Shown here: positions 1,780-53,187 of the stretch, piece by piece | Layout: each line of letters begins with the position of its first letter | Position numbering within the stretch: position 1 is the first letter of the stretch | DNA from: Nitrospirota bacterium | GTDB taxonomy: Bacteria; Nitrospirota; Thermodesulfovibrionia; Thermodesulfovibrionales; JdFR-85 | NCBI GenBank assembly: GCA_015492645.1 | Contig: WGER01000068.1 | Location: 23,605-87,604 of the forward strand | DNA: 64,000 bases | Reading direction: 5' to 3' | Position numbers and translations under genes: made by a program | The notes under the pieces: generated by a model | What the model saw: only the letters and a program-made list of their open reading frames with translations | Database searches by the model: none | Told to the model about the DNA's origin: nothing

Positions 1780-1847
1780 AGACTGACTCTCCAGAGTTGC
1801 CGCTTATTGTAGTTTTTGACCAAAAGTCTAACGGTAAAGTCGGGGCT
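1780..1847 (+). repeat. Intergenic mosaic repeat, locus A (right part of M2 region + M3 module)
   Basis: GAGTTGCCGCTTATTGTAGTTTTTGACCAAAAGTCTAACGGTAAAGTCGGGGCT aligns with 29424-29480 (GAGTTCCTGCTGCCCACTGTAGTTTTGACCGAAAGCCTAACGACAAATCTGGGACC) and with 8195-8227. Confidence 0.7.
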
Positions 1848-1882
1848 AATAGTGTAGTTTGTGCAAACACCCCGTTTCAGGT

Positions 1883-4429: not shown

Positions 4430-6217
4430 ATGCTTAGACTGAAGAGGACATATGCGATAACCAGAGGTAAGGTGATCTTTGACTACACATCACTTTACTG
4501 TGAAACTCCGGAGGCACTCCTCAGAAGTCCCCTCTTTGAGGAGGTGATCAGGAGGTTTATAAGAAGACATGCCAGCAAGGGGAGTTCCATCTTTGCATTC
4601 CTCAGTTACAATCTCCCCTGGACCTCCAGGGATGAACTGCCCTTCGAGGTGGTCAAACTATTCCGGCTCCTCTTCAGTTACACTGCCGACGAGGTAGCCT
4701 CCATGCACGAGCAATACAGGCCCATACTCTCAGACAGGGAGAACCTCTATGAGTTTGTGGAAGAACTCTACAACTACTGGAGGAGGTTTGAGAGGTTCTT
4801 TTATATAGAGGCCCCTGAGCGGTCCAACCTGCCAAGGAGCACCATCCACCATGCCCAGTTCATCAAGGCAAATGAAGAATTAAAAAATCTTGTCCTTTAT
4901 GTATATAGAAAGATAAGCGAACATATAACAGGAAAGAACCCGAGGGTATACAGGCAGTTGCCTGCAGGTGCAAATATGGGTATGCTCCTTGAGAGGATCC
5001 CCTGGAGGTGTCCTGACAGATACAGGAGACTCCTTGAGGTCCCGTTCATCAGGCTCACCCTGATGGAACCCCCCCTCATCCTGTATCCTGAGATGAACAG
5101 GAGGAAGGGAAGGTTTGAGGAGGTCCATGATATACCCGATGGCGTTCTGGATATAGACCCCTCTGAGTGGTACTGCTTCCCTGCAAAGGTGGGGGAACTG
5201 AATGGGTTTATATACTTCCACCAGGACTTCATATCTCTGGGACTGTCACTTTCAAACCTCTTTGAGATCGCTGATTACGAAGACATACACAATCAGAGGC
5301 CTGACCTGATACTGGTGTTTGGCATCAGGGGGCTCTCCTCAGCAGAGGAGGGTGTGAAGACGGTCTTCTTTGATGACAGGGAAAATGATCTGATGGTTGG
5401 GTTGATTGAACATTCCCCTGAGGTGGACTACTTTGGCTACTTCAAGAAGATGACCCTCACGCTTCACAACATCGTGATGATAAAGAGGGGCAGACTCCCC
5501 CTCCATGGTGCAATGGTCTGTTTAAAACTGAAGGGTGGTGAGAGCGCAAATGTGATACTTGTTGGTGACAGCGGTGCCGGTAAGTCAGAGACACTGGAGG
5601 CATTGAGGGTCCTGGCTGATGAGTACATCTGTGAGATGAGGGTGATCTTTGATGATATGGGTTCCCTCGGTTTAGATGCCACCGGAAGGGTGGTCGGGTA
5701 CGGAACCGAGATAGGTGCCTTTGTGAGACTTGATGACCTGCAGCCAGGGTATGCATACGAGGAGATAGACCGGAGCATCTTCATGAACCCTGACAAGACG
5801 AATGCCAGACTGATAATCCCGGTCACCAGATACCACCATGTGGTGAAGGGATACCCTGTTGACTTCTTTCTCTACGCGAACAACTATGAGCAGGTGGACA
5901 GTGAACACCCTGTGATAGAGTTCTTCCATACCCCTGAGGAGGCATTGGAGGTCTTTCGGCACGGGGCAAGGCTGGCAAAGGGGACAACGGATGAGGTGGG
6001 TCTCGTGCATACCTACTTTGCCAACCCCTTTGGTGCCCCCCAGAGGAGGGACGACCATGAGGTCCTTGCCAGCAGATACTTTGAACTGATGTTCCATCAG
6101 GCTGTGGCTGTGGGCCAGATAAGGACAAGGCTGGGGATCGAGGGATATGAGCAGGAGGGTCCAAAGGAGGCAGCAAAGGGCCTCTTTGAGGTGATGAGAA
6201 GGAGGACGGGCTTCTGA
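4430..6217 (+). CDS. Uncharacterised protein with HprK/PEPCK-superfamily P-loop domain in its C-terminal half
   Basis: LPLHGAMVCLKLKGGESANVILVGDSGAGKSETLEALRVLADEY...VIFDDMG resembles the HPr kinase GxSGxGKSE P-loop followed by DD, and the PEPCK-ATP kinase-1a region. The roughly 350 aa N-terminal region has no motif I recognise. AGGAG lies 6 nt upstream of the ATG. The gene starts 9 nt after the aspS stop and overlaps the next gene by 1 nt (TGATG). Confidence 0.55.
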   Translation: MLRLKRTYAITRGKVIFDYTSLYCETPEALLRSPLFEEVIRRFIRRHASKGSSIFAFLSYNLPWTSRDELPFEVVKLFRLLFSYTADEVASMHEQYRPILSDRENLYEFVEELYNYWRRFERFFYIEAPERSNLPRSTIHHAQFIKANEELKNLVLYVYRKISEHITGKNPRVYRQLPAGANMGMLLERIPWRCPDRYRRLLEVPFIRLTLMEPPLILYPEMNRRKGRFEEVHDIPDGVLDIDPSEWYCFPAKVGELNGFIYFHQDFISLGLSLSNLFEIADYEDIHNQRPDLILVFGIRGLSSAEEGVKTVFFDDRENDLMVGLIEHSPEVDYFGYFKKMTLTLHNIVMIKRGRLPLHGAMVCLKLKGGESANVILVGDSGAGKSETLEALRVLADEYICEMRVIFDDMGSLGLDATGRVVGYGTEIGAFVRLDDLQPGYAYEEIDRSIFMNPDKTNARLIIPVTRYHHVVKGYPVDFFLYANNYEQVDSEHPVIEFFHTPEEALEVFRHGARLAKGTTDEVGLVHTYFANPFGAPQRRDDHEVLASRYFELMFHQAVAVGQIRTRLGIEGYEQEGPKEAAKGLFEVMRRRTGF

Positions 6218-8097
6218 TGAAGGTTACCCTACATGATGGGACTATTCTGGAGGTCTCAGAGGGTGAGACCCTCTATGAGGTCCTCACCCGGAGTGGTATA
6301 TATCTGACCGCCTCCTGTGGCGGGAAGGGTGTATGTGGAAAGTGCAGGGTGAAGGTCCTTGATGGCGAGTTTGATTGTCGTGGCTATGCCAAACTCACAA
6401 AGGCGGAAATCGATGCGGGCATTGTCCTCGCCTGCCAGACGGTGCCAAGGACCGACCTCAGGATCGAGATCCCCCAGGAGTCAAGACTCACCGTTGGCGA
6501 CAGGATAGCACTCTCAAGGACGAAGGACCTTGCTGGAATCCTACAGGACTATGGCGCCTCTGTATCACCCCTTATCAGGAGGACCACCCTTCAACTGCCA
6601 CCTCCAAGCCTTGACGACAACCTCTCTGACCTAGAAAGGATAAAAAGATCACTCGATGAAGAGGGTATAACGCTGAGGTATCCGAGGAGGTTCTTCGAAG
6701 ACCTCGCCCAGCACCTCAGAAGGCACCAGTGGGGGGTGAACCTCTGCTGGCAGCCTGACAACAGAGATGCCCTGTTTATAGAGCCCCTGTCATCAGAGAA
6801 GAGATACGGCCTGGCAGTGGATGTGGGCACGACCACAGTGGTCGTTTACCTGGTGGACCTTGACACAGGGGAGGTGATAGACACTGGCTCCACCTATAAC
6901 TCCCAGATGAGATACGGTGATGATGTGATAACAAGGATCATAAATGCCACAGAGGGAGGTCTCCTGAGAGAACTGAGAAAGGCGGTGATAGAGGATGTGA
7001 ATGACCTGCTGGAGGTTATGTTAAAGAGACACGGGCTGGACAGGAGGAAGGTAGAGTCTGTCTCTATTGCTGGCAACACCACAATGAGTCACCTGTTCTG
7101 GGGACTTGATCCCGAGTTTATAAGGCTCGACCCCTACATACCAACGATCAATCTGTTTCCAGTCTGGTATGCAAGGGAAGCGGGATTGAGGACAAATCCT
7201 GATGCACCTGTCTTCACCCTGCCCTGTGTGGCCAGTTATGTGGGTGGGGATATAGTGGCAGGTGTGCTTGCCACAGGTATCCACAGGCGGCACGAACTCT
7301 CCCTGTTCATGGATATCGGCACGAACGGGGAGATCGTGATAGGCAACAGGGACTGGCTTGTCACAGCAGCCTGCTCTGCTGGTCCCTGCTTTGAGGGGAG
7401 CGGTATAAAATGCGGGATGAGGGCGACAGAGGGCGCGATTGAGGGGGTGAGGATTGACCCTGTCACCCTTGAACCTGAACTGAAGGTAATAGGTGACACC
7501 AGACCCATGGGTATATGTGGCTCAGGGATGATCGATGCAGTGGCCGAGATGTTCCTGAAAGGGGTGGTTGACCAGAAGGGCAGGCTCCAGGATACCCCCA
7601 ACAATGCAAGGGTGAGAGAGGGAGAGGATGGTCTTGAGTACCTATTTTACGGCGAGGACAACAGAGAGGTGGTACTCACCCAGGTTGACCTGGATAACCT
7701 GATAAGGGCAAAGGGTGCTATATTTGCAGGAATATCACTGCTCCTTAAGGAGGTCGGCCTTGACCTGAACTCCATAGAGAAGGTCTACATAGCAGGTGGC
7801 TTTGGTAATTATATAGACGTCAGGAAGGCGATAGTGCTTGGTATGTTGCCAGACCTGCCTGAAGAGAGGTTCCAGTTCGTGGGCAATACATCTGTCGCAG
7901 GGGCCTACCTCTGCCTGCTGTCAGAGGATATGAGGAGGGAGGCGGAGACCGTGGCATCTATGATGACCTATATTGAACTGTCGATGAAGCCGAACTACAT
8001 GGACGAGTTTATGTCAGCCCTCTTTCTGCCACATACAGACCTGGGCCTCTTTCCCACAGTCAGGGGCCTCCTTCAGGAGATGAGTAAAAACTCCTGA
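6217..8097 (+). CDS. 2Fe-2S ferredoxin domain fused to an ASKHA-type ATPase (DUF4445; RACo-like reductive activator of corrinoid proteins)
   Basis: N-terminal plant-type ferredoxin motif SCGGKGVCGKCRVKV...LACQT. The ASKHA phosphate-1 motif YGLAVDVGTTTVVVYLVD is followed by FMDIGTNGEIV and AGGFGNY. This architecture is typical of the RACo/AcsV family. Confidence 0.75.
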   Translation: MKVTLHDGTILEVSEGETLYEVLTRSGIYLTASCGGKGVCGKCRVKVLDGEFDCRGYAKLTKAEIDAGIVLACQTVPRTDLRIEIPQESRLTVGDRIALSRTKDLAGILQDYGASVSPLIRRTTLQLPPPSLDDNLSDLERIKRSLDEEGITLRYPRRFFEDLAQHLRRHQWGVNLCWQPDNRDALFIEPLSSEKRYGLAVDVGTTTVVVYLVDLDTGEVIDTGSTYNSQMRYGDDVITRIINATEGGLLRELRKAVIEDVNDLLEVMLKRHGLDRRKVESVSIAGNTTMSHLFWGLDPEFIRLDPYIPTINLFPVWYAREAGLRTNPDAPVFTLPCVASYVGGDIVAGVLATGIHRRHELSLFMDIGTNGEIVIGNRDWLVTAACSAGPCFEGSGIKCGMRATEGAIEGVRIDPVTLEPELKVIGDTRPMGICGSGMIDAVAEMFLKGVVDQKGRLQDTPNNARVREGEDGLEYLFYGEDNREVVLTQVDLDNLIRAKGAIFAGISLLLKEVGLDLNSIEKVYIAGGFGNYIDVRKAIVLGMLPDLPEERFQFVGNTSVAGAYLCLLSEDMRREAETVASMMTYIELSMKPNYMDEFMSALFLPHTDLGLFPTVRGLLQEMSKNS

Positions 8098-8107
8098 CCC
8101 CTTCTGT

Positions 8108-8227
8108 TGCCTAAATTGCCGTTAGAATCTTTCGGTAAGGGTCCCAGGAAAGTCGGAGATTTTTCTGGGCAGGACCCCCAGCCACCTTTTATGTCTTTTG
8201 ACCAAAGTCTAACGGCAGTCTGGGACC
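8108..8227. repeat. Intergenic mosaic repeat, locus B part 1 (inverted M3 - M2 hairpin - M3)
   Basis: CTAAATTGCCGTTAGAATCTTTCGGTAAG (8111-8139) is the inverted complement of the M3 core TTGACCAAAGTCTAACGGCAGT (8198-8219). Between them lies the M2 hairpin CCCAGGAAAGTCGGAGATTTTTCTGGG (8143-8169). Confidence 0.75.
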
Positions 8228-8270
8228 TAACCCCAAATCCGAATTTGACTGAAGTTCAAAATGTTTTCCT

Positions 8271-8413
8271 CTGTCAGGGCAACTTGCCTCAGAACTGAAT
8301 TAATGCGATAGGATTTTATTAAGATCAGGGCTCATCGCATTCAGTTTATGGATGAAGGCTATACATCCGGTCTTACGCACTGGTGGTATCGCTGAATTCA
8401 GGTTCTTCGGCAA
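8271..8413 (+). repeat. Intergenic mosaic repeat, locus B part 2 (M4 - M1)
   Basis: M4 is GCCTCAGAACTGAATTAATGCGATAGGATTTTATTAAGATCAGG (8286-8329), with internal hairpin 8293-8309 / 8334-8346. M1 is CGCACTGGTGGTATCGCTGAATTCAGGTTCTTCGGC (from 8376). Confidence 0.7.
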
Positions 8414-8465
8414 GTTGTCCTGACACTGACTATGGTCAATTTAGGATTTTGGCTAATCCAAATCC

Positions 8466-8496
8466 TTGACAATAAAGGCTTCACATGGGTTATCAT
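8466..8496 (+). promoter_or_regulatory. Possible promoter of yebC operon
   Basis: TTGACA at 8466-8471, then TATCAT at 8491-8496 with a suboptimal 19-nt spacer. A leader follows with GAAGGAGGG before GTG 8524. Confidence 0.3.
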
Positions 8497-8523
8497 AAAT
8501 AGTTATGTTTGAAGGAGGGTCAT

Positions 8524-9279
8524 GTGGCAGGCCACAGTAAATGGGCACAGATAAAGCATAAAAAGGCGATTGTAGATGCAAGAAAGGGAAAACTCTTCTC
8601 AAAACTGGCAAAGGAGATATCTGTAGCAGCCCGCCTTGGTGGTGGTGATCCATCCATGAATCCCCGTCTCCGAACCGCAATCGAAAAGGCGAAAGATGCG
8701 AATATGCCGCAGGACAACATCAGGAGGGCGATCCAGAAGGGGACAGGGGAATTGCCAGGTGCATCCTATGAAGAGGTGTATTACGAGGGCTATGGACCCG
8801 GAGGTGTGGCCCTCATGATTCATGCCCTTACTGACAACAAGAACAGGACAGTGGCAGAACTGAGACATATACTCAGCAAACACGGAGGAAACCTCGGAGA
8901 GGCGGGTTGTGTCTCGTGGATATTTGAGAAGAAGGGGTATATCCTCGTTAGTAAGGAGAGTATAGATGAAGATAGCCTGATGGGTATTGTTATTGAGGCA
9001 GGTGCAGAGGACCTCCGGTCAGACCCGAGGGAAGATAACTACGAGGTCATAACCTCGGTAGAAGAGTTTCATAATGTGAAGGAGGCCATTGAGAGAGCGG
9101 GGATAAGGCCCGTCAGTGCAGAGATAACGATGCTGCCAAAGACAGTGGTAAGGATAGAGGGAGATGTGGCTGAGAGGATGTTGAGATTAATGGACGCCCT
9201 CGAAGAACATGATGATGTCCAGAATGTCTATGCAAACTTTGATATACCAGAAGAGGTCATGGCCAAGGCAGGGGCATGA
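8524..9279 (+). CDS. yebC: YebC/PmpR family DNA-binding transcriptional regulator
   Basis: [31 protein letters not shown] is the canonical YebC N-terminus. I prefer GTG at 8524 with GAAGGAGGG 5-6 nt upstream; the track start at 8509 adds 5 atypical residues. Confidence 0.9.
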
Positions 9280-27243: not shown

Positions 27244-28185
27244 TTATTCTCTGTAGATACATTCCTCGGGCCTTTTGTCACTCCTGAGCCCGAGGAAGAC
27301 AGGTGCCCTCAGTTTTCCAGACTCGGTCCACTCCATGGCTGTCACCCTTACCACTGTATCGGGTATTACCCATCTCACCCCTGAGGGATGCTCAAATAAG
27401 GGGACCCCTGTCTCCTTTTCTCTGAGTATCTCTATAATCTCTCTCCTCTCCTTCTCAGTAAAGCCTGTGCCAACCTGGCCGATATGGACAAGTGTACTGT
27501 TCCTGTAAAGGCCCAACACAAGGGAAGCAAAGGGCCTCTTCTCTGAGTCGATCCATCCGCAGACAACAGCGTCTATATCGATCGTCTTCTTTATCTTAAG
27601 CCAGGAGCGTGACCTCACACCTGGCTGGTATAGACTCCTTCTCTCCTTTGCCATGATCCCTTCAAAGCCCCTCTTTACAGCCTCTCTAAAGAGGGGTATC
27701 CCCTCTCTGTAGGTCCTTGAGATGATGATATGTTCACCCTCCCTCACCAGTTCCTCAAGCAGTCTCCTCCTTTCCATCAGGGGCCTTTTGAAGAGTCTCT
27801 CCTGTCTGAAGTAGAGTATATCAAAAACGATATACATGGCAGGAGACAGCCTTGAGAGGATGGATATCCTGTGCGGGTCAGTGATGTGCTCCCTCCTCTG
27901 GAGAGTCTTAAAATCAGGTACACCTTCCTTTAACATCACAATCTCTCCATCCAGTATGACATCCTCTCCATCAACTGCCTTAGCAAGGGAACCAAACTCG
28001 GGATACCTGTAAGTGATATCCAGAAGTCTCCGGTTCTGAAGCCTTACATTGCTACCCTGGATATAGGCTATACACCTTGTGCCGTCCCATTTGAGTTCAT
28101 AGAGGAATTCTTCAGAGTCCAAGGGTTCCTTAGCCTTTTCTGCAAGCATGGGTTTTATAGGCCAGCATTTAAAGGGCGAGGCCAT
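27244..28185 (-). CDS. ligD: ATP-dependent DNA ligase, LigD ligase domain only (no polymerase or phosphoesterase domains)
   Basis: Adenylation motif I YELKWDGTRCIAY (KxDG). Also GEIVML, EGIMAK, WLKIK, and a C-terminal OB-fold region. 313 aa. It lies directly downstream of ku. Confidence 0.85.
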   Translation of the reverse strand: MASPFKCWPIKPMLAEKAKEPLDSEEFLYELKWDGTRCIAYIQGSNVRLQNRRLLDITYRYPEFGSLAKAVDGEDVILDGEIVMLKEGVPDFKTLQRREHITDPHRISILSRLSPAMYIVFDILYFRQERLFKRPLMERRRLLEELVREGEHIIISRTYREGIPLFREAVKRGFEGIMAKERRSLYQPGVRSRSWLKIKKTIDIDAVVCGWIDSEKRPFASLVLGLYRNSTLVHIGQVGTGFTEKERREIIEILREKETGVPLFEHPSGVRWVIPDTVVRVTAMEWTESGKLRAPVFLGLRSDKRPEECIYRE

Positions 28186-28193
28186 TGACTGGA

Positions 28194-28988
28194 TTATCCA
28201 GCAGTCTTTCTTTTCCGGGTCTTTGGCTCTGTTACAGAGAGACTCTTCTTCAATGCCTCCATGAGACTCACAACCCTTTCGGCCTCTCTTGCTGGTTTTA
28301 CCTTCACCTCTCCACCGCTTATCTTCTGATTGATCAATTCCATCAGGGCCTCAGTGGACCTGTCGTGATACTCTGAGATATCAAAACGTGCAGAAAATCT
28401 CTCCACCAGTTCCTCTGCAAGGGCGAGGGCCTCCTTGCTCACCTCCATCTCTTCCGGTATGGTGATAAAGTCTGTACTTGCGATCTCGTTGGCGAAGTGG
28501 AGTGTATGGATTGCGAGGACCTTCTGATAGGGTCTGAGAATACCTATATGTTCTTTCCCCCTCATGGCAAACCTCAGGAGCCCGACTCTTCTCTTGTTCT
28601 GAAGGGCCTTCTTCAGCAACAGATATGCCTCAAGGCCATCCTTCTCAGGAGCGAGATAGTAGGTGCTATCAAAATAGACAGGATCAATCTCCTCTAAGGG
28701 TACAAAAGAGATTATCCTGATCGCCCTGCTTTCTTCCCGGAAGAGGGACTCCAGTTCCTCATCAGAGATGATCACGTATCTGTCCTTTTCATATTCATAA
28801 CCGTGGGTCACATCGGACCACTCTACCTCTTTCTGGCAGGTGGGGCAGTACCTCTCATATTTCAGATGAGTGGAGCAGGCCTTATGCAGTAGATGCAGCG
28901 GGACCCCTCTCTTTCTGACGGCAGAGTAGAGTTTTACAGGCACAGAAAGCAGGGCTACTGATAGATTCCCCTTCCACAGGGCCTTCAT
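28194..28988 (-). CDS. ku: Ku protein (non-homologous end joining)
   Basis: ALWKGNLSVALLSVPVKLYSAV...YERYCPTCQKEV...GYEYEKDRYVIISDEELE is the typical bacterial Ku core. The C-terminal tail is basic. Confidence 0.9.
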   Translation of the reverse strand: MKALWKGNLSVALLSVPVKLYSAVRKRGVPLHLLHKACSTHLKYERYCPTCQKEVEWSDVTHGYEYEKDRYVIISDEELESLFREESRAIRIISFVPLEEIDPVYFDSTYYLAPEKDGLEAYLLLKKALQNKRRVGLLRFAMRGKEHIGILRPYQKVLAIHTLHFANEIASTDFITIPEEMEVSKEALALAEELVERFSARFDISEYHDRSTEALMELINQKISGGEVKVKPAREAERVVSLMEALKKSLSVTEPKTRKRKTAG

Positions 28989-29035
28989 AGTTATAAGATA
29001 CCATACTATCCGGCAGTATCACAAATAAGGTAAAT

Positions 29036-29217
29036 TGGCCATGGCACTTGTGGTGTCACTGAACAGATTGGTTCTGGCCACTGAATTATCAAATGAGTGA
29101 AACACTCGTAATTTTTCTGCAGGAGCCTCTCTGTCCCACAAAGTCTCTGATTTGGAGGGGGATCCCCTGCCGCCTTCCAAAGTTTTGCTTGAATCCTTTC
29201 GGTAATATGGAGGGACC
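29036..29217 (+). repeat. Intergenic mosaic repeat, locus C part 1 (M1 copy followed by degenerate modules)
   Basis: GCCATGGCACTTGTGGTGTCACTGAA (29038-29063) matches 29347-29372 at 25 of 26 positions, 309 nt apart. Downstream fragments (AATTTTTCTGCAGGAGCC, GAATCCTTTCGGTAATATGGAGGGACC) resemble the M1 tail and inverted M3 of locus B. Confidence 0.7.
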
Positions 29218-29480
29218 GGACCGTAGATTGCCGTTAGAAATGTGTGCTTTTGCGGCAGGGACTGCCTCAAAACATGATTTATGCGACAATTTTAATCAAA
29301 AGATTTCAGCCTTTTTTCACCTAATAGGTGAAACGTCATTACATTTGCCATGGCACTTGTGGTGTCGCTGAAATTCTGATTTTTCGGCAGGGGTTCCCAG
29401 GAAAATCGTGGATTTTCCTGGGCTGAGTTCCTGCTGCCCACTGTAGTTTTGACCGAAAGCCTAACGACAAATCTGGGACC
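29218..29480 (+). repeat. Intergenic mosaic repeat, locus C part 2: most complete cassette (inverted M3 - M4 - M1 - M2 - M3)
   Basis: Inverted M3 at 29223-29257. M4 at 29264-29311, sharing the 18-nt identity AACATGATTTATGCGACA with 48136-48153. M1 at 29347-29390. M2 is a perfect 10-bp hairpin, CCCAGGAAAATCGTGGATTTTCCTGGG, at 29396-29422. M3 at 29446-29480. Confidence 0.8.
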
Positions 29481-29493
29481 GGATATATTTGTT

Positions 29494-29521
29494 TTGGAAG
29501 ACAGTGGTTTTAGTGTATAAT
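29494..29521 (+). promoter_or_regulatory. Putative promoter of nrdJ-pdxJ-acpS-nnr operon (leaderless)
   Basis: TTGGAA (29494-29499) - 16 nt - TATAAT (29516-29521) - 5 nt - ATG 29527. No Shine-Dalgarno sequence. Confidence 0.45.
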
Positions 29522-29526
29522 TTAAT

Positions 29527-31257
29527 ATGCTTCAACTGTCACAGAATGCCCTCAAGGTGCTGAGAGCGAGGTATCTACTGAAGAATGAAAGGGGAGAGGT
29601 GGTTGAGACACCTGAGCAGATGTTCCACAGGGTGGCCACTCATGTTGCTTCCAGCGAGGATCTCTATGGTGGTGACAGGGCATACTGGCAGGAGAGGTTT
29701 TATGATATTATGACATCCCTCAGATTTCTGCCAAATTCTCCCACCCTGATGAATGCTGGCAAGGAACTTGGCCAACTCGCCGCCTGCTTTGTCCTTCCTG
29801 TGGAAGACTCGATGAAGAGCATCTTTGATACACTCAAACATGCGGCCCTGATTCTGCAGAGCGGGGGAGGTACAGGGTTTTCCTTTTCCCGCCTTAGGCC
29901 GAAATCCGATATCGTCAAGTCTACAGGTGGGATTGCGAGCGGTCCGGTATCATTTATGAAGATATACAATACTGCCACTGAGGTGATCAAGCAGGGCGGT
30001 GCAAGGAGAGGGGCAAATATGGGTATCCTGAGGGTTGATCACCCGGATATACTCGAGTTTGTCAGGGCGAAGATGGACAGAGAGGAACTGACCAATTTCA
30101 ACATCTCTGTGGCTATTACGGATGAGTTTATGGAGGCATTGAAGAGGGATGGTTATTACAATCTCATTAATCCAAGAACAGGACAGATGGTCGGGAGGCT
30201 AAAGGCCCGTGAGGTCTTTAACGAGATGGTCAGGTGTGCATGGCTTACCGGAGATCCAGGACTGGTGTTTATAGACAGGATCAACAGAGACAACCCCACC
30301 CCCCACCTCGGCAGGATAGAGAGCACAAACCCCTGTGGAGAACAGCCACTTCTTCCCTACGAGGCCTGTGTACTCGGTTCTATCAACCTCTCAAAGTTTG
30401 TACTCAACCCGATCACGGATAACCCTGACAATACCCCGACAATAGATTACCAGAGATTGAGGGATGACATATACACTGCTGTAAGGTTTCTTGATGACTG
30501 CATAGATGCCAGCAGGTATCCGCTTGAGGAGATTGAGAGGATGCACAAGGGGAACAGAAAGATCGGTCTCGGTGTTATGGGGTGGGCGGATATGCTGGTG
30601 ATGCTGGGTGTCCAGTACAACTCCCGCAGGGGGTTCAGACTTGCAGAGGAGGTGATGGGTTTTATCCAGAAGACATCAAAGGAGGCATCTCAAAGACTGG
30701 CTGAGGAGAGGGGTGTATTCCCCAATTTTAAGGGCTCAATATACGACAGGCCGGGTATGCCGAAGGTGAGGAATGCCACAACCACCACCATAGCGCCCAC
30801 AGGCACCCTTTCAATCATTGCAGACTGCTCAAGCGGCATTGAACCCTATTTTGCCCTTGCCTACAAGAGGTATGTACTGGATACAGAACTGCCAGAGGTG
30901 AACAGGTACTTCTTCAAACTGGCAAAATTGATGGGTTTTTATTCACCTGAACTGGAAAGGGAGGTGATCAGAAAGGGGAACCTGAGGGGGGTGAAGGGGG
31001 TCCCGACAAAGGTGAAGAAACTCTTCAAGACTGCACTTGAGATACCTCCTGATGACCATATCGAGATGCAGGCGTCCTTTCAGAGACATACTGACAATGC
31101 GGTATCAAAGACGATAAATCTTCCAAGGTCAGCAAAACCTGAGGATGTGGAGAGGGCCTTCCTGCTCGCCTATGAGAAGGGTTGTAAGGGGATAACCGTT
31201 TTCAGATATGGCTCCAGGAAGAGGGGCACATTGGTGAGGTTTGATGATACCTATTGA
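29527..31257 (+). CDS. nrdJ: Adenosylcobalamin-dependent (class II) ribonucleotide reductase
   Basis: NALKVLRARYLLKNERGEVVETPEQMFHRVA, PNSPTLMNAG, GGGTGFSFSRLRP, STNPCGEQPLLPYEACVLGSINL and AVSKTINLP match the compact monomeric-type class II RNR. Confidence 0.85.
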   Translation: MLQLSQNALKVLRARYLLKNERGEVVETPEQMFHRVATHVASSEDLYGGDRAYWQERFYDIMTSLRFLPNSPTLMNAGKELGQLAACFVLPVEDSMKSIFDTLKHAALILQSGGGTGFSFSRLRPKSDIVKSTGGIASGPVSFMKIYNTATEVIKQGGARRGANMGILRVDHPDILEFVRAKMDREELTNFNISVAITDEFMEALKRDGYYNLINPRTGQMVGRLKAREVFNEMVRCAWLTGDPGLVFIDRINRDNPTPHLGRIESTNPCGEQPLLPYEACVLGSINLSKFVLNPITDNPDNTPTIDYQRLRDDIYTAVRFLDDCIDASRYPLEEIERMHKGNRKIGLGVMGWADMLVMLGVQYNSRRGFRLAEEVMGFIQKTSKEASQRLAEERGVFPNFKGSIYDRPGMPKVRNATTTTIAPTGTLSIIADCSSGIEPYFALAYKRYVLDTELPEVNRYFFKLAKLMGFYSPELEREVIRKGNLRGVKGVPTKVKKLFKTALEIPPDDHIEMQASFQRHTDNAVSKTINLPRSAKPEDVERAFLLAYEKGCKGITVFRYGSRKRGTLVRFDDTY

Positions 31258-48119: not shown

Positions 48120-48347
48120 GGCCGCCCTGCTTCAGAACATGATTTATGCGACAGATTTTATCCATAAAAAGTCCAATGTCTTATCAGGTAGTGTTGAAGG
48201 TTATTATTTTGTCAGAGGCACTGTCGGTGTCGCTGAAATCCCTGATTTTTCAGCAGGGCGGCCTATCCTAATTTTTCAGGAAAAGATACCTCGTGGTCTT
48301 GCCACAGGGTAGTCCATTTGACCAAAATTCTACTCGCAATTAGGGAT
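48120..48347 (+). repeat. Intergenic mosaic repeat, locus D (M4 - M1 - degenerate M2 - M3)
   Basis: M4 is GCTTCAGAACATGATTTATGCGACAGATTTTATCC (from 48129). M1 is AGGCACTGTCGGTGTCGCTGAAATCCCTGATTTTTCAGCAGGG (48216-48258), containing hairpin GCTGAAA/TTTCAGC. M3 is CATTTGACCAAAATTCTACTCGCAATTAGGGAT (48315-48347). Confidence 0.75.
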
Positions 48348-48380
48348 ATTTTATGGAGTGGGTCAGAAAGGCGAGAGGTT

Positions 48381-48389
48381 TGATATAAT
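48381..48389 (+). promoter_or_regulatory. Putative extended -10 promoter of trkA operon (near-leaderless)
   Basis: TGATATAAT at 48381-48389, 8 nt before ATG 48398. No Shine-Dalgarno sequence. It is the same nonamer as the tRNA-Gln promoter. Confidence 0.5.
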
Positions 48390-48397
48390 CATTACCT

Positions 48398-49744
48398 ATG
48401 AGGGTGATCATAATAGGCGCAGGAGAGGTGGGTTATCATCTGGCGAGGTTCCTCTCCAGGGAGAGGGATGTAGAGGTGGTTGTGGTTGACACTGACAGCC
48501 AGAAACTGAGGAGGATCAGTGAAGAGATGGATATTGCCACCATAGAGGGTGAGGGTGGTTCGCCTGAGGTCCTGAGGGAGGCAGGTGCAGATGATGCCGA
48601 TATACTGCTGGCTGTGACAAACAGTGATGAGACGAACATGATCGCCTGTCTTGTTGCGAAGGCCCTCTTCAATGTAAAGAGAAAGATCGCCAGGATAAGG
48701 AACCGAGAGTACTATACAAACCAGAAGTTGCTTTCACCAGAGAATCTCGATATAAACCCGGCCATAAATCCCGAGTATGAGAGTGCAAAGGCGATACTCA
48801 GGTTGATAGATGTCCCCTTCGCATACGATGTGGAGGAGTTTGAGAATGGTCAGATCAAGGTGCTCGGGCTTAAGGTTGAGGAGGACTCGATAATAACGGG
48901 CAGGAGTCTGAGGGAGTTCCGTGAGAAGACAAAGGAGAATCTATTAATAGGGATAATACAGAGGGAGGACAGGGCGATCATACCAAGGGGTGATGACAGG
49001 GTGAAAATGGGTGACATCATCTACCTGCCTGTACACAAAGATGATGTGGAGAGGGTGGGTGCATTCCTTACCAAGGGACCCAAGGTGGTGAGGAAACTAA
49101 TGATTGTGGGTGGTGGGAGGATAGGCTTTACCGTGGCATCAGAACTGCAGGGTAGAGATATAACGGTAAAATTGATAGAGAAGGATCCTGAAAGGTGTAA
49201 GTACATATCCAAGAGGCTCAAGAACATTATAGTCCTTCAGGGTGATGGCTCAGACAGGGGTCTTCTGGAGGAAGAAAACATCCGGGACATGGACCTGTTT
49301 GTTGCCCTCAGTAACAATGAAGAACTGAACATCATGTCCTCGCTGCTTGCAAAGAGGCTTGGTGTAAAGAAGGTAATAACCCTGGTAAACAGGACGGACT
49401 ACATCACCCTTGCCAACAACCTGGGCATTGAGGTCGTTATCAGTCCGAGGCTCATCACTGCCAGCAGGATACTCAGATATGTGAGGAGGGGAGATATACT
49501 GAGTCTGACTGCTATCGCTGAGGACATGGCGGAGATCATTGAGGCTAAGGTGGCTGGGGGCTCCAGGTTTGTGGGTAGACCTCTGAAGGATGTCGGTCTA
49601 CCAAGGGATGCCCTGGTAGGGGCGATAGTGAGAGGGATGGAGGTCATAATCCCTGGTGGTGAAGATGCGGTAAGACCAGAGGATCGTCTCATAATCTTTA
49701 CCCTCAGGGAGGCGATCAAGGCGGTGGAAGAGTTTCTCCTATGA
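48398..49744 (+). CDS. trkA: Trk potassium uptake system NAD-binding subunit (tandem RCK domains)
   Basis: MRVIIIGAGEVGYHLARFL, and a second Rossmann fold at LMIVGGGRIGFTVA. 448 aa. Confidence 0.9.
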   Translation: MRVIIIGAGEVGYHLARFLSRERDVEVVVVDTDSQKLRRISEEMDIATIEGEGGSPEVLREAGADDADILLAVTNSDETNMIACLVAKALFNVKRKIARIRNREYYTNQKLLSPENLDINPAINPEYESAKAILRLIDVPFAYDVEEFENGQIKVLGLKVEEDSIITGRSLREFREKTKENLLIGIIQREDRAIIPRGDDRVKMGDIIYLPVHKDDVERVGAFLTKGPKVVRKLMIVGGGRIGFTVASELQGRDITVKLIEKDPERCKYISKRLKNIIVLQGDGSDRGLLEEENIRDMDLFVALSNNEELNIMSSLLAKRLGVKKVITLVNRTDYITLANNLGIEVVISPRLITASRILRYVRRGDILSLTAIAEDMAEIIEAKVAGGSRFVGRPLKDVGLPRDALVGAIVRGMEVIIPGGEDAVRPEDRLIIFTLREAIKAVEEFLL

Positions 49745-52415: not shown

Positions 52416-53187
52416 GGTGTACAGACATCTACCAAAGACAAACTGTGGAAGATGTGGCCTGAGCACCTGTATGGCCTTTGCAGTGAGCCTCTGCCGGGGA
52501 GAGGCAAAGGTGAAGGACTGTCCGTTCCTTGGACAGGAGGAGAGGGCACTGCTGAACAGGGTTCGCCCCTTTGACTGGAAGAGGGAGTTGATTAATAAAA
52601 TGAGAGAAGAGGCAAGTCGTCTGGACTTTGCTGGGATATGCGACAGGATAGGGGCTGTACTGCAGGAGGACGGTTCACTGAGGCTCACCTGCCTGGGAAG
52701 ACCGTACAGGGTTACACCAGAGGGGGATGTCCTTGCTGAGGATGGAAGAGATGTAAATCCCTGGGTGAATATCCTCATACTCCATTATCTGAGATCCGGT
52801 GGTAGTGGGAACCCCACGGGTAAATGGGTCGACTTCTCTGAGTTAAAGTCAGGGATGTTGAAGGTGGCATCCTTCAGGAGGGACTGTGAAGAACCTCTCG
52901 GGGAACTCTTTGATAAGTACAGGGCCGGGGTGGAAGAAGCACTCCAGTTGCTGGGCGCAGTGAGGGTCAAAGATGCACCAACGGCGGATGCCTGGGTCTA
53001 CTATATCCTCCCTAAGGTTCCCCTTCTGCTTCTTTACTGGCCAGGGGAGGATGGTGAAGGGAGTAGGTTAAAGATCCTTTGGGACAGTTCTGCTGACAGG
53101 TTCCTTGATGTGGAGTCTCTGATCTTTGCTACAGAGGGGCTTGTACATACCATACAGGGGTTATTGAGAGGAAGGGTGAAGAAATGA
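52402..53187 (+). CDS. DUF3786 domain protein with N-terminal putative 4Fe-4S binding domain (CdhE/AcsC-like FeS motif)
   Basis: N-terminus LPKTNCGRCGLSTCMAFAVSLCRGEAKVKDCPF (Cx2Cx4C...C), as found at the N-terminus of the corrinoid/Fe-S protein large subunit. The rest matches my recollection of the DUF3786 pattern (YLRSGGSGNPTGKWVDFSEL...LLLLYWPGEDGEG). Confidence 0.6.
   Translation: MNPVEVYRHLPKTNCGRCGLSTCMAFAVSLCRGEAKVKDCPFLGQEERALLNRVRPFDWKRELINKMREEASRLDFAGICDRIGAVLQEDGSLRLTCLGRPYRVTPEGDVLAEDGRDVNPWVNILILHYLRSGGSGNPTGKWVDFSELKSGMLKVASFRRDCEEPLGELFDKYRAGVEEALQLLGAVRVKDAPTADAWVYYILPKVPLLLLYWPGEDGEGSRLKILWDSSADRFLDVESLIFATEGLVHTIQGLLRGRVKK

Follow-up and report, generated by a model that had tools for sequence, protein, structure and literature searches.

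Two adjacent units of a modular hairpin repeat family lie in the spacer between a RACo-like gene and yebC in a Nitrospirota genome

We analysed the intergenic spacer that separates a RACo-like gene from yebC in a 64,000-nt stretch of DNA from a Nitrospirota bacterium (hereafter the window, to which all coordinates without a prefix refer). The spacer runs from 8098 to 8523, with the RACo-like gene ending at 8097 and the GTG start of yebC lying at 8524, and at 426 nt it is among the three longest gaps between the genes mapped. A 595-aa protein with no Pfam domain (4430-6217) is conserved upstream of the RACo-like gene, with a one-base overlap. Folded as RNA, the + strand of the spacer reaches -147.4 kcal/mol, compared with -115.4 +/- 5.7 kcal/mol for 100 dinucleotide shuffles (z = -5.57), and none of the 100 shuffles (0/100) matched it; the minus strand gives z = -4.76. 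The proposal that the gap is structured agrees with this fold.

In a search for ungapped Watson-Crick inverted repeats, the best four of the spacer were reached by 0, 4, 3, and 0 of 300 dinucleotide shuffles. The initial annotation had read 8114-8138 as pairing over about 19 bp with 8198-8219; the pairing exists and is solid for 10-17 bp (I3 in Table 1, whose arms enclose the M2 hairpin, 8143-8151 with 8161-8169), but the figure of 19 bp was generous, the inner part (8129-8138 with 8198-8207) being interrupted. The imperfect inverted repeats described at 8227-8249 and 8435-8456 were recovered as the 18-nt pair I2, and a third inverted repeat of 39 nt (8272-8310 with 8387-8425), larger than both others, had been absent from that description. 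Two further proposed elements, the pairing of 8293-8309 with 8334-8346 within module M4 and the hairpin that adjoins the TTGACA box (8466-8471), are readable in the sequence. The inverted repeats exceed those of shuffled sequence, and the feature is confirmed as real, non-random, and homologous to other loci.

Table 1. Features of the RACo-yebC spacer (locus B) and of related loci in the window and in relatives
Feature	Position	Strand	Remarks
RACo-like gene	6217-8097		Pfam RACo domains
Inverted repeat I3	8110-8126 with 8208-8224		17 nt, 82% complementary; inverted-repeat search
Arm a, 5' strand of the left unit's closing helix	8110-8127	+	Pairs with 8208-8224 (I3)
Remnant of core 3' end	8127-8138	+	ATCTTTCGGTAA compared with ATTTTTCGGCAG; inside the alignment of 8127-8227 with 29379-29480
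M2 hairpin	8139-8178	+	CCCAGGAAAGTC / GATTTTTCTGGG, two G-T wobbles; fold and alignment to locus A
Tail module T, locus B (yebC)	8181-8230	+	TTTTGACCAAAGTCTAACGGCAGTCTGGGACC; nhmmer E = 1.4e-10; includes the 3' arm of the left unit's closing helix
Inverted repeat I2	8232-8249 with 8435-8452		18 nt, 83% complementary; inverted-repeat search
P0, 5' strand	8232-8249	+	I2; left 22-nt repeat of the initial annotation (8227-8249)
Direct repeat, copy 1	8233-8240	+	CCAAATCC; possible target-site duplication
Right, complete unit	8241-8457	+	5' flank, P0, P1, core, P1', P0'
P1, 5' strand	8272-8288	+	17 bp with 8409-8425, including one G-U
Core, locus B	8285-8412	+	Conserved, 128 nt: P2, P3, and apical region of ~75 nt; modules M4-M1 of the initial annotation
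P1, 3' strand	8409-8425	+	Partner of 8272-8288
P0, 3' strand	8435-8452	+	Right 22-nt repeat of the initial annotation (8435-8456)
Local hairpin	8443-8466	+	AGGATTTTGG-CTAA-TCCAAATCCT; read from sequence
Direct repeat, copy 2	8458-8465	+	CCAAATCC
yebC promoter	8466-8496	+	TTGACA-N19-TATCAT; outside the element, marks its downstream limit
yebC	8524-9279		GTG start
Core, locus A	29263-29389	+	
Core, locus C	48128-48255	+	
Core, JdFR-85	L004:4957-5085		
Core, third lineage	L010:3198-3320		Diverged
Tail module T, locus D (rluB-like gene)	1798-1849	+	
Tail module T, locus A (nrdJ)	29432-29481	+	
Tail module T, locus C (trkA)	48300-48350	+	
Apparent leaderless boxes, window	29516-29529, 48384-48400		
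Apparent leaderless boxes, relatives	L012:6770-6790, L014:7105-7121, L015:355-380, L016:1845-1872		

The centre of the right half of the spacer is a 128-nt core that recurs elsewhere. The window holds three such cores, all on the + strand: that of locus B before yebC, that of locus A before nrdJ, which encodes a class II ribonucleotide reductase, and that of locus C before trkA; the spacers that carry them are the three longest gaps between genes mapped in the window. Scanning 185,579 species genomes with the core pattern identified one further core, in the metagenome-assembled genome Nitrospirae bacterium JdFR-85, and an exact-pattern scan of 241 million metagenome records recovered the same JdFR-85 core sequence and no further locus; the core pattern had no match in viral contigs. 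Against a first covariance model (R1) built from these four copies, the window cores score 118-133 bits on the + strand versus 8-26 bits on the - strand, the locus B core reaching 118.5 bits (E = 5e-28) on + and 16 bits on -. A fifth, diverged core was found in a third lineage (record L010) with 45.5 bits, using a model built without that record, and a second model that included it found no further copies in ~170 kb of the relatives' and flanking DNA.

The five cores, which come from ~240 kb of sequence (~73 kb of the source genome and ~165 kb from three related lineages), share 55-76% pairwise identity, and the JdFR-85 core is closer to those of loci A and C (71-76%) than that of locus B is (57%). 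At the gathering score of Rfam 15, the only match in the whole window is tRNA-Gln, and at E values up to 10 the matches of loci B and A lie far below the gathering score and were taken as chance; a BLAST search with the spacer had no hit among plasmids and phages, and nothing on such elements was found in the literature on Nitrospirota or Thermodesulfovibrio. Going by Rfam 15 and the literature that could be searched, the family is undescribed; it is small and lineage-restricted, and known only from a few uncultured Nitrospirota genomes. All five cores, and all four copies of the tail module T described below, are oriented like the gene that follows them (5/5 is not significant), and the genes downstream of the copies, namely yebC, nrdJ, trkA, a PTPS gene, and a small membrane ORF, have no common theme.

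Locus A consists of a degenerate unit, with a core fragment at 29031-29063 that matches 29340-29372 at 91% and a degenerate tail at ~29174-29221, followed by a complete one. Directly upstream of it, on the - strand and divergent, lies an NHEJ pair of genes, for Ku and for an ATP-dependent DNA ligase (27244-28988); in relatives, a rodZ-like gene and not the NHEJ pair precedes nrdJ. An ENA scaffold of the same organism (REYS20-1 scaffold_367) stops exactly where the locus A core ends (position 53057 of that record, 29389 of the window), an assembly break that the repeat or a hairpin may have caused.

A complete unit of ~225 nt is predicted to form a long irregular hairpin, in which an outer helix P0 and then a helix P1 of 11-17 bp, with a conserved TGCC/GGCA step inside it, enclose the conserved core. 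Within the core, P2 pairs CAGAAC.GATT with AAT.CTGATTnTT and P3 pairs GCGACA with TGTCGC, and the apical region of ~75 nt carries the conserved unpaired motifs AGATTTTAT, GGTGAARG, and GGCACTGnnGG. After the core there commonly come an M2 hairpin, which is optional, and then the conserved tail T of ~50 nt. Among the five cores, 96% of pair cells hold standard pairs, 6 of the 21 pairs have changes on both sides, and the covariation score was reached by none of 500 shuffles, while sliding the partners out of register makes the pairing collapse to 35-45%. The test rests on five sequences. Because the model did not include P1, this helix is an independent check of the fold: its sequences are unrelated between copies (B TGTCAGGGCAACT...; C GGCCGCCCTGC; JdFR-85 GGCAGGTTGGT), and each is perfectly or near-perfectly complementary to its own partner, as also at locus A (GCGGCAGGGACT with AGTTCCTGCTGC), where the M2 hairpin is inserted. 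P0 was found in three copies (B CCCAAATCCGAATTTGAC...; JdFR-85 TTGACTTGAGT / ACTCAAGTCAA; A ATTGCCGTTAG / CTAACGACAAT), those of B and JdFR-85 being mostly different and having in common only a TTTGAC...GTCAA core; at locus C the search gave no convincing partner for P0, and neither A nor C reached significance in the duplex test.

The folds of whole units have z values between -3.0 and -5.9, except for that of the L010 copy at z = -0.4. In 7/7 units the + strand gives the better fold of the two strands, which is not significant, nor is the hand count of ~12 G-U pairs versus ~5 A-C mismatches in the helices. Across the five aligned sequences, the helices are supported by compensatory substitutions, as in a structured RNA or ssDNA element, and comparison of the diverged copies shows them to have been kept by compensatory change; the + strand RNA is probably the level at which selection acts. 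A possible switch between TTTCGG at the 3' end of the core and CCGAAA in the tail is present in locus A and in the remnant at locus B and missing from locus C and JdFR-85, and is therefore no feature of the family. The GGCAC...GC stretch of the core was considered as a sigma-54 promoter and rejected, having a GG-N13-GC and not a GG-N10-GC layout and reading CGCAC in copy B.

The RACo-yebC spacer is two adjacent units of this family, the left one core-less and the right one complete. Arm a of the left unit is identical at 15/16 positions to 29224-29239 at locus A, to which 8112-8127 is homologous, and the stretch that follows, 8127-8227, aligns with 29379-29480 (72.6% identity over 106 nt, E = 8e-9), comprising the last 11 nt of the core, then M2 (at 29394-29426 in locus A), then T. 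From these two local alignments, the left half (8110-8230) is a unit of the locus A type minus ~139 nt of core. What had been described as the inner arm of the nested repeat 8114-8138 / 8198-8219 is the remnant of the core 3' end, and the nested repeat as a whole, judged by these alignments, is better read as mainly the closing helix of the core-less left unit.

In the right unit, the 5' flank GAATTTGACTGAAGTTCA matches CTATTTGACTTGAGTTCA of the JdFR-85 locus (L004) at 14/18 positions, and the two 22-nt repeats, going by their comparison with the other copies, are the P0 of one unit and not family-wide termini. Part of the local hairpin at 8443-8466, GGATTTTGG, can instead pair with copy 1 of the direct repeat, forming P0. 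In copy B only, the 5' strand of P2/P3 (8293-8309) has a rival local partner, ATCGCATTCAGTT at 8334-8346, versus the long-range one at 8387-8404.

The tail module T (...GTAGTTTTTGACCAAAAGTCTAACGGnAAATCTGGGAC) occurs at four places in the window, before the rluB-like gene of locus D in addition to loci A, B, and C, and has a weak counterpart after the JdFR-85 core; it was not found in the relatives. Measured from its TTGACC to the end of the -10 hexamer, its distance is 72, 71, and 72 nt at loci A, C, and D, respectively, and 298 nt at locus B; the -10 boxes were picked by eye, and the distances to the start codon, which are independent of that choice, are 82, 78, and 80 nt at D, A, and C. Excising the 225-nt segment 8241-8465 brings the distance at locus B to 73 nt, so that T would stand at a near-constant 71-73 nt before four unrelated operons (rluB-aspS, yebC without the insert, nrdJ, and trkA). 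T thus appears to behave as a promoter-linked upstream module, ~72 nt before the end of the -10. It holds a near-palindrome, TTTTGACCAAAA, whose centre would be near -72 if the -10 has its usual position, which we take to be close to the position of a class I activator, and T may be an activator or architectural site.

The yebC promoter of the window, TTGACA-N19-TATCAT, has a counterpart in the relatives L006, L008, and L010: TTGACA-N19-TATGAT stands before yebC in all three, and the scan for promoters did not list the window copy, its N19 spacer being one nt beyond the range of the scan. In the window, position 8516 in the yebC Shine-Dalgarno sequence reads A versus G (GAAGGAGGG versus GAAGGGGGG), the sole difference from three assemblies of the same organism that each overlap the window by 8.3-19.3 kb. 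The genes nrdJ and trkA appear leaderless, with a TATAAT-like box that lies 5-8 nt ahead of the ATG and without a Shine-Dalgarno sequence, an arrangement conserved in relatives; being leaderless, they have the element upstream of their transcription start.

The 225-nt segment whose excision restores the spacing of T is insertion-like in its own right, as it consists of the right unit plus one copy of an 8-nt direct repeat, CCAAATCC, that flanks this unit. The direct repeat was found after the fact, and repeats of at least 8 nt at these flanks occurred in 18 of 2000 shuffles; the predicted empty yebC site reads GGGACCTAACCCCAAATCCTTGACA. The initial annotation had suggested a look for target-site duplications flanking 8227 and 8456. 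The 8-nt repeat is a candidate for one; a TA duplication at 8228/8454 was rejected because the boundaries are too flexible for it to be meaningful. None is evident at the JdFR-85 copy, and at locus A the flanking GGGACCGGA is explained by the tandem tails.

In the three nearest relatives (L006, L008, and L010), where YebC is 83-84% identical and the downstream gene order is kept, the yebC promoter and leader are present, and neither core nor tail is found there. Next to yebC on its upstream side, these relatives carry genes of toxin-antitoxin type, a BREX-like island accompanied by a tRNA fragment, or a gene for a methyltransferase, and the gap before yebC in L010 is as short as 222 nt. The element is likewise absent from the relatives at nrdJ, which follows a rodZ-like gene by 76-94 nt, and at trkA, which follows a TPR gene by 90-110 nt. 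Sites without the element thus exist in relatives. At B, A, and C alike, the upstream gene order is broken and the downstream order kept, so that all three core-bearing spacers coincide with breaks in gene order. In JdFR-85 (L008:1-9700), a BREX/PglY-like defence island and a large methyltransferase gene lie upstream of yebC, with an apparent tRNA 3' fragment at ~9680-9725 of L008, and the site upstream of yebC looks like a hotspot of integration or rearrangement in this lineage.

From the direct repeat, the restored spacing of T (73 nt), and the element-free relatives we infer that insertion placed the right unit between T and the promoter of yebC, in keeping with the suggestion that one cassette had been inserted into or next to another. 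Copies also decay, as seen from the remnant in L006, which keeps only a degraded 3' half where its close relative L010 has a copy, and from the weak fold of that L010 copy (z = -0.4). At this site (L006:842-944 versus L010:3156-3362), the flanking genes are nearly identical and the spacer differs, which suggests loss by deletion over precise excision.

Several known kinds of element resemble this family in part. REP and REPIN elements are reportedly mobilised by RAYT transposases; the genome of a REPIN carries a RAYT (Y1 transposase) gene, and a conserved GTAG stands next to the palindrome. The family described here is similar in being made of short, non-autonomous intergenic hairpin repeats whose arms stay complementary through compensatory change, in having single, paired, and nested units, and in the GTAG that precedes the TTTTGACC part of T in 3/4 copies. 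It differs in its larger units (~225 nt), whose interior of 128 nt is conserved and non-palindromic, in an apparently low copy number, in the divergence (55-76% identity) and uniform orientation of its copies, and in that no RAYT gene was seen among ~35 annotated genes. The ERIC (IRU) elements of enterobacteria and the BOX elements of pneumococci are intergenic imperfect palindromes or modular cassettes without a transposase of their own, have variants with internal deletions or insertions at fixed points, and are thought to act as folded RNA. The present family shares with them the modular, imperfectly palindromic build, the insertion and deletion variants, and the missing transposase, yet it has no sequence similarity to them, comes from another phylum, and combines hypervariable closing stems with a conserved interior and a tail phased to promoters.

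The idea that the 22-nt repeats are the ends of a MITE-like element was only partly right: at one copy a segment bounded by inverted repeats is flanked by direct repeats, but the conserved part of the family is the interior and the outer helix varies. Likeness to MITEs and Correia elements extends to the promoter-adjacent insertion and the absence in relatives; it ends at the outer helix, which is not common to all copies, the lack of near-identical copies, the uniform orientation, and the fact that no related IS was found. A classical MITE was rejected, as terminal repeats are not the same in all copies (B CCCAAATCCGAATTTGAC..., A ATTGCCGTTAG..., JdFR-85 TTGACTTGAGT...), the best pair of copies is 76% identical, flanking direct repeats are seen at a single copy, and no transposase domain was found in the annotated genes. 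Finally, multicopy structured sRNA families and protein-binding RNAs such as RsmX/Y/Z occur as diverged paralogues within one genome, and our copies resemble them as diverged intergenic paralogues with a conserved fold and unpaired motifs; unlike them, they have no common promoter or terminator and include truncated and nested copies.

We consider the best explanation to be an old family of non-autonomous repeats that form hairpins, much like REPIN, ERIC, or BOX elements; its units were inserted, nested, truncated, and lost, and its fold is still selected. We put the probability of this explanation at about one half. Transposition or recombination would have spread the family as a non-autonomous element in which the folded single strand matters, either as ssDNA recognised by a mobilising enzyme or, more simply, as + strand RNA; such behaviour has been proposed for REPINs, ERIC elements, and hairpins derived from MITEs. 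It would now be old and no longer moving, its copies decaying at some sites and its fold selected at others. Several findings count against this explanation: no pair of copies is more than 76% identical, so that nothing points to recent transposition, the sequence of the outer helix is not common to all copies, the direct repeat occurs at one copy only and was noticed after the fact, and the uniform orientation is unusual for randomly inserting elements, though 5/5 is not significant; among ~35 annotated genes, none was of the transposase, RAYT, or IS200 type, the sequence read amounting to ~73 kb of the source genome.

Another reading, which uniform orientation supports, is that the cores are paralogous stand-alone ncRNA genes of ~150-230 nt, read from the + strand under their own promoters, with the fragments as pseudogenes and the repeats as closing helices. 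This alternative, which we regard as possible though clearly less probable, fits a sequence conservation found mostly in the predicted loops and junctions, with closing helices that vary yet stay complementary, and a + strand that is favoured by the model scores and by the folding energy in every unit. The copy from another genus is nearer to A and C (71-76%) than B is (57%), which suggests old paralogues under selection, and locus C has an extended -10-like TGcTGTAAT just before P1. However, the copies have no promoter or terminator in common and match no Rfam family, and the tandem degenerate units, the core-less unit, the insertion signature, and the loss at orthologous sites are more typical of repeat elements.

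It is doubtful that the modules act at the level of DNA, with T as a candidate activator or architectural-protein site at fixed phase and the inverted repeats as by-products or looping sites. Such a role would account for the distances of 72, 71, and 72 nt from T to the -10 at three loci and 73 at B minus 225 nt, for the near-palindrome in T with its centre near -72, and for the position of T and core upstream of the start at nrdJ and trkA, leaderless here and in relatives. It leaves the 128-nt core and the complementarity of sequence-unrelated helices unexplained; moreover, T at ~50 nt is longer than a simple operator and was not found in relatives, and the -10 boxes behind these distances were picked by eye.

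That the structured region is a cis-regulatory leader of yebC, a riboswitch or attenuator, is very improbable, even though it has the same orientation as yebC, a complex conserved fold, and, in copy B, an alternative pairing (8293-8309 with 8334-8346 or 8387-8404). The yebC promoter, which is orthologous to those of the relatives, lies downstream of the whole structure, the downstream genes at A and C are leaderless and those of the family have no functional theme, and the alternative pairing is specific to B. A riboswitch leader was rejected because the element lies outside the 5' UTR and has no terminator-like site, and no intrinsic terminator was found. Chance features of an AT-rich spacer are refuted by the fold (z = -5.6), the homologous copies (E = 1e-28 to 1e-32), and the covariation, although single short repeats of 8-12 nt are only marginally beyond random expectation.

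A further, rather speculative possibility is that the core is a new structured RNA class or an element recognised as ssDNA, that T is a portable module ~72 nt from the -10, and that together they amount to a lineage-specific rewiring of promoters in Thermodesulfovibrionia. The closing stems would then be free to vary while the interior stays constant, and T would have been placed or selected at an exact distance in unrelated operons.

Lineage-specific repeat and ncRNA candidates are common, and the finding is no breakthrough. If real, it would be an undescribed structured repeat family of an uncultured thermophilic Nitrospirota lineage, with clear compensatory evolution and an unusual layout of variable stems, a conserved interior, and nested units. 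The family marks all three sites in the window at which gene order differs from that of the relatives, and it may therefore take part in, or mark, genome rearrangement. Its promoter-phased tail, going by spacing in the sequence, is a candidate for a regulatory input shared by yebC, nrdJ, trkA, and the rluB-aspS operon.
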